From: a phage
DNA: 64,000 bases
Strand: one strand, 5' to 3'
NCBI GenBank assembly: GCA_017686895.1
Contig: GCA_017686895.1_4521.1
The position numbers and the translations under genes were made by a program. This document shows, piece after piece, positions 24,470 through 50,710 of this stretch (its first letter is position 1; each line of letters begins with the position of its first letter). A model generated the notes under the pieces. The model saw only the letters and a list, made by a program, of their open reading frames with translations. It was not told the DNA's origin and did no database searches.

Positions 24470-24518
24470 GTTTACTTCTCCAGTAGTTGTGTTATTATAG
24501 ACCTATCAACTACTGGAG
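24470..24518 (+). promoter_or_regulatory. early-promoter/stem-loop cassette (PeSL-like)
   Basis: GTTTAC -35, TATTAT -10, 12-bp arms ctccagtagttg / caactactggag flanking -10; right arm carries the SD. Confidence 0.5.
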
Positions 24519-24524
24519 AACAAA

Positions 24525-25987: not shown

Positions 25988-26026
25988 GTTTACATTATAG
26001 ATGGACTATAGTATAGTAGTCCTATC
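25988..26026 (+). promoter_or_regulatory. early-promoter-like element
   Basis: GTTTAC -35, TATAGT -10, conserved agtcctatc start region. Confidence 0.45.
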
Positions 26027-35857: not shown

Positions 35858-35888
35858 GTTTACAACCAAGGATGGTTGGAGTATAATC
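35858..35888 (+). promoter_or_regulatory. early-promoter-like element
   Basis: GTTTAC -35, TATAAT -10. Confidence 0.45.
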
Positions 35889-37392: not shown

Positions 37393-37442
37393 GTTTACTT
37401 CTCCTCTGGTTTTGATATTATAACCATATCAACCAGAGGAGA
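37393..37442 (+). promoter_or_regulatory. early-promoter/stem-loop cassette (PeSL-like)
   Basis: gtttacttctcctctggtt..TATTAT..aaccagaggagaa; 11-12-bp arms flank -10; related to cassette at 24470. Confidence 0.5.
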
Positions 37443-37447
37443 ATAAT

Positions 37448-48247: not shown

Positions 48248-49573
48248 ATGCAATTGAATTCTCGTAATCTAAAAAGTATTATTGATAACGAAGCCTTAGC
48301 ATATGCGATGTACACCGTTGAAAACCGTGCAATCCCAAACATGATTGATGGATTTAAGCCGGTTCAACGTTTTGTTGTTCATCGGGCATTAGATTTGGCT
48401 CGTGGTAATAAAGAAAAATTTCATAAACTTGCGTCAATTGCAGGAGGTGTTGCAGATTTAGGTTATCATCATGGCGAATCTTCTGCACAAGATGCAGGTG
48501 CATTGATGGCTAATACGTGGAATAACAACTATCCACTGTTAGACGGCCAGGGCAACTTTGGTTCTAGAACAGTCCAAAAAGCTGCAGCATCTCGTTATAT
48601 TTTTGCTCGTGTAAGTAAAAATTTCTATAATGTCTATAAAGATACTGAATATGCTCCAGCACATGAAGATAAAGAACACGTTCCACCAAAATTCTATCTT
48701 CCTATTATTCCGACAGTTCTTTTGAATGGCGTCTCTGGTATTGCAACCGGTTACGCAACAAATATTCTGCCTCATAGTTTTAAATCAGTTAAAAAGGCTG
48801 TATTACAAGCTCTTCAAGGTAAAAATGTCACTAAGCCAAAAGTTGAATTCCCAGAATTCCGTGGTGAAGTACATGAAGTTGATGGGCGTTATGAGATTCA
48901 CGGAACATATAAGTTCACATCTCGCACTCAAATGCAGATAACTGAAATCCCATATAAATTCGACCGTGAAACGTATGTGAGTAAGGTTCTTGACCCGTTG
49001 GAAGACAAAGGTCTAATCTCATGGGAAGATGATTGTGGTGAACACGGCTTTGGGTTTAAGGTGAAGTTCCGTAAAGAGTACTCGCTTCCAGATGACGAAG
49101 AGCTACGTCATGAAAAAATCATGAAAGATTTTAGTCTCATCGAACGTCGTTCACAAAACATCACAGTGATTAATGAAAAGGGTAAATTGGCGGTCTACGA
49201 TAACGTAGTGGACTTAATCAAAGATTTTGTTGAAGTCCGTAAGACTTACGTTCAGAAACGTATTGATAACAAAATCCTTGAATCTGAAAAAGCATTTAAA
49301 CTTGCTTTTGCTAAGGCACACTTCATCAAAAAAGTTATCAGTGGCGAAATTGTGATTCAGGGCAAGACTCGTAAAGCTTTGACTGAAGAGCTAGCACAAA
49401 TCGAAATGTATAAAGAACATGTCGATAAACTGGTAGGTCTTAACATCTTCCATATCACTTCCGACGAAGCACGGAAACTAGCAGAAGAAGCTAAAGCTAA
49501 GAAAGAAGAAAATGAGTATTGGAAGTCTACTGATGTTGTGACAGAGTACACTAAAGACTTGGAGGCACTTTGA
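48248..49573 (+). CDS. 52: DNA topoisomerase II medium subunit gp52 (GyrA-like)
   Basis: AYAMYTVENRAIPNMIDGFKPVQRF motif; 441 aa. Confidence 0.92.
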   Translation: MQLNSRNLKSIIDNEALAYAMYTVENRAIPNMIDGFKPVQRFVVHRALDLARGNKEKFHKLASIAGGVADLGYHHGESSAQDAGALMANTWNNNYPLLDGQGNFGSRTVQKAAASRYIFARVSKNFYNVYKDTEYAPAHEDKEHVPPKFYLPIIPTVLLNGVSGIATGYATNILPHSFKSVKKAVLQALQGKNVTKPKVEFPEFRGEVHEVDGRYEIHGTYKFTSRTQMQITEIPYKFDRETYVSKVLDPLEDKGLISWEDDCGEHGFGFKVKFRKEYSLPDDEELRHEKIMKDFSLIERRSQNITVINEKGKLAVYDNVVDLIKDFVEVRKTYVQKRIDNKILESEKAFKLAFAKAHFIKKVISGEIVIQGKTRKALTEELAQIEMYKEHVDKLVGLNIFHITSDEARKLAEEAKAKKEENEYWKSTDVVTEYTKDLEAL

Positions 49574-49648
49574 GTGCCCTAGCCTTAGGATTTCTCAGTG
49601 CAATAGCTGCACTAGTGATTTGGCTGTATTGGTTGGACAATCATGATT

Positions 49649-49680
49649 AGGGAGCTTCGGCTCCCTTTTGTGCATTTTTT
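49649..49680 (+). terminator. intrinsic terminator after gene 52
   Basis: gggagc-ttcg-gctccc followed by ttttgtgcattttttc. Confidence 0.55.
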
Positions 49681-49691
49681 CTCACAAAACA

Positions 49692-49730
49692 GTTTACATG
49701 TGCTTCAAACGTGATATTATAGACCTATCA
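49692..49730 (+). promoter_or_regulatory. early-promoter-like element
   Basis: GTTTAC -35, TATTAT -10, agacctatc; near-duplicate of 50013-50050. Confidence 0.45.
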
Positions 49731-49759
49731 AAACAAAACAACCAAATTGGAGAAATAAA

Positions 49760-49975
49760 ATGTCTAAAATGAAATTAACCCAAAACACAACTACTCGTTT
49801 CGGTAAAGTCAAACCCGGTATGAATGCTCTCCGTAAAGCACTTGTTGAAGAATTAAATTTCTTAGAAGTTGAAATCAATTCTTTAGTGGTTCGCGGTTCA
49901 AATGGACATCATTTAGAAAAGCTTCGTTCTAAAAAGGCAAAACTTATTAGCCTTATTAAAGAAATGAGTTTGTAA
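49760..49975 (+). CDS. hypothetical protein
   Basis: 71-aa ORF after promoter cassette duplicated upstream of motA. Confidence 0.4.
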   Translation: MSKMKLTQNTTTRFGKVKPGMNALRKALVEELNFLEVEINSLVVRGSNGHHLEKLRSKKAKLISLIKEMSL

Positions 49976-50012
49976 ATTTTACCAGGGCTTTTGAAAAAGA
50001 GCCCAAAATAAA

Positions 50013-50050
50013 GTTTACTTTTGCTTCAAACATGATATTATAGACCTATC
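50013..50050 (+). promoter_or_regulatory. early-promoter-like element upstream of motA
   Basis: GTTTAC -35, TATTAT -10, agacctatc. Confidence 0.45.
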
Positions 50051-50077
50051 AAACAAATACTAATTTGGAGAAATAAA

Positions 50078-50710
50078 ATGTCTAAAGTTACTTACATCAT
50101 CAAAGCTTCTGAAAACGCTCTGAATGAAAAAACTGCTGCAATAATGGTTTATATCATTAAGAACAACTTCACCACTGCTGCCAATGTCCGTGAAGCTCTG
50201 AAAGCGGAATACAATGCATCGGTTGTTAACTCTAACATTGGTGTATTGATTAAAAAAGGTTTAGTCGAAAAATCCGGTGATGGACTTGTGGCAACCGGCG
50301 AAGCAATGGATATTATCCAAAAAGCTGCAGACCTATTTGCTCAAGAAAATGCTCCAGAACTTCTCCAGAAACGTAACACCAGAAAAGCACGTGGAGTTAC
50401 TCCTGAAATGCATGAACTAGCGAACTTTGTTTTTGAAAATATTAAAGATAAAGTTGAAGTTAAAGAAATTGGTGAAAACCGTAGTAACTTAGAAGTTCGA
50501 TTCGCTAAACGAGTTCTAGGCATTCGCCAAATTGAAATTCGACGAGATGGCGCTCTTAGAATCTTTGCATACAACATGTCAGAAACTGAATCAAAGCTGT
50601 TTACTTCTCTTGAAAATGATGTTAAGATTAAAATCGGTGGTAAATATACTTACATTGACTTCCCTAATGTGTCCAAAGAAATCATTACCCTTGTAACTAA
50701 CGTACTGTGA
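50078..50710 (+). CDS. motA: middle-transcription activator MotA
   Basis: MSKVTYIIKASENALNEKTAAIMVYI...NSNIGVLIKKGLVEKSGDGL matches T4 MotA as recalled; 210 aa. Confidence 0.9.
   Translation: MSKVTYIIKASENALNEKTAAIMVYIIKNNFTTAANVREALKAEYNASVVNSNIGVLIKKGLVEKSGDGLVATGEAMDIIQKAADLFAQENAPELLQKRNTRKARGVTPEMHELANFVFENIKDKVEVKEIGENRSNLEVRFAKRVLGIRQIEIRRDGALRIFAYNMSETESKLFTSLENDVKIKIGGKYTYIDFPNVSKEIITLVTNVL

Follow-up and report, generated by a model that had tools for sequence, protein, structure and literature searches.

The window analysed here is a stretch of 64,000 nucleotides of phage DNA and was assigned to an RB69-like Mosigvirus. The 2.9 kb round the repeat described below are 97–98.6% identical to many RB69-like phages, and the closely matching Mosigvirus relatives include CCU7, Shf125875 and ATK47. 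The + strand is the direction of early transcription and carries, in this order, gene 52, a 26-codon ORF, a 71-codon ORF (orf71) and motA. Gene 52 (48248–49573, +) is the conserved upstream neighbour; it encodes the topoisomerase II medium subunit and carries the annotation gene 52 in relatives with about 98% DNA identity. The 26-codon hydrophobic ORF (49570–49650, +; translation LSALALGFLSAIAALVIWLYWLDNHD up to the stop) has a TTG start that overlaps the gene 52 stop and sits at the position of T4 motA.1. It is absent from the ORF list of the window. A small ORF is annotated after gene 52 in HX01 and in Dhakaviruses too. The activator of middle transcription, motA (50078–50710, +), was recognised by PF09114 (2.4e-39), PF09158 (2.2e-8) and phrog_1345 (7e-90).

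The gene in between, orf71 (49760–49975, +), encodes a 71-aa ORFan and is the cargo of the locus. It matches phrog_6200, a PHROGs family of unknown function, and a Pfam search gave nothing above cut-off. Only eight clusters were found among 5.8 billion proteins, and these are restricted to Mosigvirus and Dhakavirus. The AlphaFold model (pLDDT 76) predicts a plain helical hairpin with a disordered basic N-terminus, for which Foldseek returned no match in the PDB below E = 0.6. The GC content of orf71 is 32.9%, compared with 37.3% for the window. Both orf71 and the 26-codon ORF after gene 52 deserve consistent calling in annotation.

Between gene 52 and motA, orf71 is bracketed by two motA-type early promoter/ribosome-binding cassettes at 49692–49768 and 50013–50086. 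The promoter core of cassette 1 (49692–49731, +) contains the -35 element GTTTAC (49692–49697), a TG-extended -10 element TATTAT (49715–49720) and the start region AGACCTATCAA. In the core of cassette 2 (50013–50052, +), GTTTAC lies at 50013–50018 and TATTAT at 50036–50041. The promoters thus read TTTACA-N16-TATTAT (49693–49720) and TTTACT-N16-TATTAT (50014–50041), each with a TG before the -10 element and with the heptamer TGCTTCA in the spacer (49701–49707 and 50022–50028, +). Transcription would be expected to start near 49727 and near 50048. Direct reading also revealed A/T-rich sequence, with ttttgtgcattttttctcacaaaaca and aaaataaa upstream and TTGGAGAAATAAAATG downstream in both copies. 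The cores are followed by a variable leader segment. That of cassette 1 (AACAAAACAACCAAA, 49732–49746, +; here called type 1) has 8 mismatches to copy 2 over 15 columns, and that of cassette 2 (ACAAATACTAAT, 50053–50064, +; type 2) is of the same type as in the single cassette of RB69. Each cassette ends in a translation-initiation block, TTGGAGAAATAAAATGTCTAAA, composed of a GGAG Shine-Dalgarno sequence, the ATG and codons 2–3. The block at 49747–49768 (+) is identical to that at 50065–50086 (+). With the start codons of orf71 at 49760 and of motA at 50078, the repeat extends three codons (ATG TCT AAA) into both genes. Its period is 321 nt from core to core and 318 nt between the translation-initiation blocks.

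A stem-loop lies upstream of each cassette. Stem-loop 1 (49649–49680, +; the hairpin itself 49649–49666) has a 7-bp stem and a UUCG loop, followed by a T-rich tract. It folds with -15.6 kcal/mol (z = -3.7), and none of 200 shuffled sequences folded as well. The element is annotated as a terminator in ATK47, SA79RD, PhAPEC2 and WFL6982, and T4 has an equivalent hairpin. Stem-loop 1 therefore reads as the putative intrinsic terminator of the gene 52 unit and, at the same time, as the stem-loop part of cassette 1. The corresponding part of cassette 2, stem-loop 2 (49985–50004, +), has an 8-bp stem with a GAAA loop and is followed by AAAATAAA; its folding energy is -12.3 kcal/mol (z = -3.2). Because a T-tract is lacking, a terminator role of stem-loop 2 is doubtful. 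The structure is kept in every examined genome that has a gene at the site, and one pair varies as G-C, G.U or A-U between genera. With this one compensatory pair in four distinct sequences, covariation was not in excess of that in shuffled controls (248 of 500). Inside the two promoters no stem-loop was found (z = +0.75 and -0.55). We also considered a leader riboswitch or attenuator, as well as the internal stem-loop of a PeSL, a composite of stem-loop and strong early promoter whose end is formed by the Shine-Dalgarno sequence and start codon of the following gene and which is concentrated beside ORFans (PMC2839356). These candidates were rejected, as RNA and DNA folds of both promoter-leader units were no better than shuffled controls. 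An Rfam scan of 49400–50300 (E ≤ 1) detected no RNA family.

The original prediction described near-identical promoter, start-region and leader sequences upstream of the ORF at 49760 and of motA, and both its placement and its quoted consensus match the sequence. The pair was compared with the other early promoters of the window. The comparison set consisted of 15 T4-type early promoters on the + strand, each paired with its downstream start codon, and the compared stretch ran from 10 nt upstream of the -35 element through codon 3. The cassette pair (49693/50014) ranks first, with identity in 74 of 86 aligned columns (86%); the remaining 104 of the 105 pairs have a mean of 58.5% (SD 5.1) and a maximum of 74.4%. 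The same rank was obtained for the promoter part alone (88%, maximum of the others 82%) and for the leader part alone (85%, maximum 76%). When a 31-nt degenerate pattern of the core was searched in the 64 kb with three mismatches allowed, the two cassette sites were the only hits, with none expected by chance. The observation in the original prediction, which an identity no higher than that of unrelated early promoters of the window would have refuted, is therefore confirmed. The cassettes are a copied regulatory module of promoter, transcription-start region, Shine-Dalgarno sequence and start codon, and their likeness goes beyond that among early promoters in general. The module, first put at about 70 nt including the ribosome-binding site, turned out slightly longer owing to the three codons on either gene. 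Its identity is uneven: mismatches number 3 over the 40 nt of the core and 8 over the 15 columns of the leader segment, and the 22-nt initiation block is free of them (Fisher p = 4e-5). The longest exact words common to both copies are 22 nt (49747/50065) and 21 nt (49712/50033).

Other promoter cassettes were observed on the + strand of the window. In two early promoters, at 24471–24522 and 37394–37445, the -10 box is enclosed in a stem of 12–14 bp (z = -5.8 and -8.1 for the DNA folds), whose 3' arm covers the downstream GGAG Shine-Dalgarno sequence. They are 69–75% identical to each other and belong to another, classic PeSL subclass. Further sub-families are formed by the cassettes at 25989, 46612 and 47124, by those at 1836 and 47385, and by those at 35859 and 36416, with 72–82% identity in the promoter part; several of these have stem-loops over the -10 element. 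The neighbouring cassettes 35859/36416 and 46612/47124/47385 each bracket single small ORFs, in the same layout as the orf71 locus.

The arrangement was then followed through related genomes. In 94 phage records orf71 occurs as a single copy per genome; about 77 of them are of Mosigvirus type (at least 86% amino-acid identity) and 17 of Dhakavirus type (72–77%). About 154 Mosigvirus-like records span the locus and roughly half of them are without orf71, an occupancy of about 50% that is a ratio of BLAST counts and not a per-genome classification. The locus was read nucleotide by nucleotide in ten single-cassette and ten two-cassette genomes. The ORF is missing and only one cassette is present in RB69, O157tp3, FL31, WFL6982, mar005P1, DCP548, AV118, 348Ecol098PP and two IMG/VR contigs. 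In the type phage RB69, the gap between gene 52 and motA measures 185 bp. All ten ORF-less Mosigviruses have their single cassette in the original upstream context. In nine of them flank 1 and the core are followed by leader type 1 and then directly by motA (ATGTCTAAA-GTT); the joint relative to a two-cassette genome therefore falls within the 22-nt block. In RB69 the order is flank 1, core, leader type 2 and motA; here the leader is of the motA type, and the joint lies in the promoter core. Whichever state is older, both single-cassette classes differ from the two-cassette state by exchanges that lie in the repeat's two exact blocks. A by-eye comparison of the short, A/T-rich leaders with those of Dhakavirus, Klebsiella phage Marfa and T4 did not settle the ancestral leader of motA or separate insertion from deletion. 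The Dhakaviruses JS98, C6, VR5 and ABTNLsp5 have the two-cassette layout with an orf71 homologue, and Dhakavirus E33 has a single cassette and no ORF. A pattern scan of IMG/VR returned mostly the same isolate genomes plus two or three metagenomic contigs, and thus little independent sampling. The single-cassette sites are real variants and not assembly errors. In ECCR664, orf71 lacks one A in the run 'tctaaaaaggc', which shifts the frame near its 3' end; the record has 134 kb and is shorter than related genomes, and the frameshift may mark a pseudogene or a sequencing error.

The site also accepts other genes. In Dhakavirus MN04, an unrelated 75-codon ORF is located between the same cassettes, together with the same second stem-loop, and in JS10 the ORF between the cassettes encodes a 75-aa protein identical to that of MN04. 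IME08 has three cassettes and two ORFs. Its array (371–1250) consists of the orf71 homologue, a second, unrelated ORF (MKTLNINSFFYNANTD...) and motA, and the leader and ATG context of the second ORF are identical to those of the first cassette. The 75-codon ORF was detected in 168 records, and its protein is 97–100% identical between Dhakaviruses and many Tequatroviruses. In Dhakavirus MN04 and Tequatrovirus ZN18, some 375 bp that run from the leader through the 75-aa ORF, stem-loop and promoter to the next leader and ATGTCTAAA are 96–100% identical, whereas the flanking gene 52 and motA of the two phages are only 50–78% identical. In ZN18 a T4-type motA promoter is truncated and its start-region motif TATCAA forms the left junction; the right junction is the Shine-Dalgarno/ATG block, GGAG..ATGTCTAAA. 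About 420 nt upstream of ZN18 motA, the terminator hairpin is fused directly to '...aaagcatactgtggTACTAT' and the -35 element is lost. The imported cassette of the 75-codon ORF follows this truncated promoter, and motA runs from a Dhakavirus-type promoter. The Dhakaviruses JS98 and IME341 have an extra, dispersed copy of the promoter core at an unrelated locus, upstream of a gene beginning MLTIKINKGIYRGNEIS. At the position of the 26-codon ORF, Dhakaviruses have a different, 34-codon hydrophobic ORF, and this Dhakavirus version is present in Mosigvirus 348Ecol098PP. The small ORF after gene 52 therefore appears to be exchanged as well. The main point of the locus, which had been overlooked in the original prediction, is that the repeat is, as far as the compared genomes tell, where insertion, loss and exchange of the gene in between take place.

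The two copies appear to have been kept alike within genomes. Over the 40-nt core, copies of one genome are on average 94% identical, and same-position copies in the other genus 88–92%. All 12 Mosigvirus copies have C at core position 15, where the eight Dhakavirus copies all have T. An A at core position 9 that is private to VR5 occurs in both VR5 copies, and the copy-1 spacer of SA79RD is the copy-2 version. Substitutions common to both copies of one genome suggest gene conversion, on the strength of a few mutually agreeing sites within 40 nt. For the start-codon block a direction of copying can be proposed. In all genera examined, among them those of T4 and Klebsiella phage Marfa, motA starts with ATG TCT AAA. 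The orf71 homologues of Dhakaviruses begin with ATG AAT/AAC AAG (MNK) after a different Shine-Dalgarno spacer, and those of Mosigvirus with MSK and the block of motA. As the motA start is constant and the orf71 start variable, orf71 appears to have taken the initiation region of motA and not the reverse. These observations fit an old arrangement that would have been kept alike block by block through recombination or gene conversion, the copying of the motA initiation region onto orf71 being one such event.

Several explanations of the repeat were weighed against this material. A simple recent tandem duplication or copy-paste of the motA promoter-leader in this genome, with no further role, could account for the high identity of 86% overall and 100% over 22 nt, and the transfer of a motA-type initiation block onto orf71 in the Mosigvirus lineage was a real copying event. 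The word 'recent', which had been part of the original prediction, does not stand, so that its interpretation is supported only in part. The same layout with the same ORF is common to the 94 records and to two genera, which largely refutes such a reading. The identity is block-wise instead of uniform, and in all the orf71-carrying Mosigviruses that were examined the divergent leader segment in the middle keeps its position and is unlike in the two copies. The exact 22-nt block is found only in Mosigvirus, as the Dhakavirus ORF has an initiation region of its own, and the gene between the copies is an unrelated one and not duplicated DNA. We consider a recent duplication most improbable. As judged from these genomes, the cassettes are instead a long-standing, recombination-prone pair round a dispensable and exchangeable ORF. 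Functional constraint alone, with selection favouring one sequence in both strong early promoters and no contribution of recombination between them, would also produce similar promoters. The consensus of T4-type early promoters does extend beyond the hexamers (PMC2988021), the start-region motif AGACCTATCAA recurs at the 24471 promoter, and the single motA promoter of Klebsiella phage Marfa has nearly the same core. Constraint leaves unexplained, however, why the cassette pair is far above every other early-promoter pair of the window, why the strain-specific substitution of VR5 is found in both copies and copy 1 of SA79RD is converted, and why the junctions of indels, replacement and cross-genus transfer map to the repeated blocks. 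It is thus very unlikely to be the whole explanation.

The repeat might also be kept mainly for co-regulation of orf71 and motA, through promoter strength, a RegB-sensitive Shine-Dalgarno sequence and possibly a MotA-box-like operator, with mobility as a side effect. RegB/S1 sites consist of GGAG with an A-rich tail, 11 nt long and single-stranded, in the initiation regions of early mRNAs (PMC1702504). RegB cleaves T4 motA mRNA within its Shine-Dalgarno sequence (PMC2988021), and RegB sites have been reported in RB69. Both leaders contain GGAGAAAUAAA and are predicted to be unstructured. This sequence is near the RegB/S1 consensus (PMC1702504), matching GGAGRAYARAA (T4 optimum GGAGAAUAAAA) at 9 of 11 positions, with deviations in positions 7 and 8. 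It would be plausible that RegB shuts off orf71 and motA early and in concert. The spacer heptamer TGCTTCA corresponds to the MotA-box core and is found in both cassettes and in none of the 13 other early promoters. MotA-dependent middle promoters have a MotA box, (a/t)(a/t)(a/t)TGCTTtA, 12 ± 1 bp upstream of the -10 element (PMC2988021). In the cassettes the distance to TATTAT is 7 bp, and a canonical middle promoter at this heptamer was rejected; neither cassette is among the 17 canonical MotA-box promoter matches in the window. In the window as a whole, TGCTTYA occurs 66 times (23 expected) and canonical Mot-box promoters 17 times (1.8 expected). TGCTT(C/T)A is present in the motA early promoters of Mosigvirus, Dhakavirus and Klebsiella phages, 5 bp out of MotA-box register, and T4 has AAAGCA, the reverse complement of the MotA-box core, at the same spot. 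We see a slim chance that the heptamer acts as an operator by which MotA or MotA/AsiA-bound polymerase lowers its own promoter, with orf71 as a co-regulated partner of MotA and not a random passenger. If so, the duplicated cassette would put orf71 under the same feedback and RegB shut-off as motA. A search of the accessible literature for MotA autoregulation found nothing relevant. Co-regulation of the two genes would agree with the single orf71 per genome in the 94 records, directly upstream of motA in every locus read. Against co-regulation as the main reason for the repeat, about half of the Mosigviruses are without orf71, the different initiation region of Dhakavirus orf71 indicates that an identical one is not required, and an unrelated ORF can replace the gene. 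On balance this explanation is very improbable.

Most probably, the repeats are paired T4-type immediate-early promoter/translation-initiation cassettes of the PeSL kind, with a small mobile ORFan inserted between them in the interval from gene 52/motA.1 to motA. Each cassette would give its downstream gene a strong sigma-70 early promoter of its own, with GTTTAC, TGn, TATTAT and an A/T-rich upstream region. In Mosigvirus both genes would in addition receive the same GGAG Shine-Dalgarno sequence with its A-rich tail. We infer that orf71 and motA are switched on together right after infection, and they would also be shut off together if RegB acts as it does on T4 motA mRNA. As the comparison of genomes shows, the exact blocks, 21 nt in the core and 22 nt at the start codon, appear to serve as portable homology for recombination. 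Crossover or gene conversion within them deletes, inserts or replaces a unit of ORF, stem-loop and promoter and keeps the copies alike; the predicted product of an excision is a circle of 318–321 bp. With these properties the locus is a clear case from nature in which promoter cassettes of T4-type phages act as sites of recombination. Two types of single-cassette junction, an alternative cargo, an expanded array and a cross-genus transfer are all found at one locus, and the same two short conserved blocks bound them all. Such exchange can rewire a core regulator at its promoter and leader, as most of the examined Mosigviruses without orf71 run motA from the leader type that otherwise precedes orf71.

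Lambdoid 'morons' are units of promoter, ORF and terminator that are inserted between conserved genes. The orf71 locus resembles them as a self-contained expression unit between two conserved genes. In contrast to morons, its base composition is not strongly foreign, its boundaries are direct repeats of a promoter resident in the phage, and it moves by homology within the T4 group. Closer parallels exist to the motA locus of T4 (Hinton 2010, PMC2988021; Durand et al. 2006, PMC1702504). There, too, a terminator hairpin follows gene 52/motA.1, the sequence '...tcacaaaac(a/g)GTTTAC' is found, and motA starts with ATG TCT AAA behind a GGAG Shine-Dalgarno sequence. In T4, however, the cassette occurs once and its spacer, -10 region and leader differ, whereas here it is duplicated and drives an extra gene.

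The closest known systems are the PeSLs (Arbiol et al. 2010, PMC2839356), with which the locus shares its components, from stem-loop and A/T-rich region through the sigma-70-like early promoter to Shine-Dalgarno sequence and start codon, as well as tandem copies round a single ORFan. Promoter and terminator activity of PeSLs was assayed in that work. Tandem PeSLs recombine and thereby excise or insert the flanked ORF, and mini-circles were detected by inverse PCR (PMC2839356). Here, likewise, the ORF is deleted, inserted or replaced among close relatives, which keep one chimeric cassette. T-even PeSLs have the consensus TTTACW-N17-TAYWAT with a stem-loop just upstream (Comeau et al. 2014, PMC4122927), and the present cassettes share this promoter consensus and have their stem-loops just upstream as in phage PST. 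Differences from PeSLs are the spacing between the -35 and -10 elements, which is 16 nt here and 17 nt in the T-even consensus, the conserved regulator motA in place of another ORFan as downstream gene, and the homology that runs three codons into both genes. Unlike in several other cassettes of the same window, there is no stem-loop inside these two promoters. The gene 52–motA locus of Mosigvirus and Dhakavirus was not found among published PeSL examples. The sequence hallmarks of PeSLs are all present: an early promoter, an upstream stem-loop, A/T-rich sequence, an adjoining ORFan, and indel and replacement junctions inside the cassettes. In summary, the locus matches the known T4-type cassette kind at the level of sequence; the mechanism it reveals is not new, and promoter, terminator and mini-circle activities like those of published PeSLs would be expected of it.
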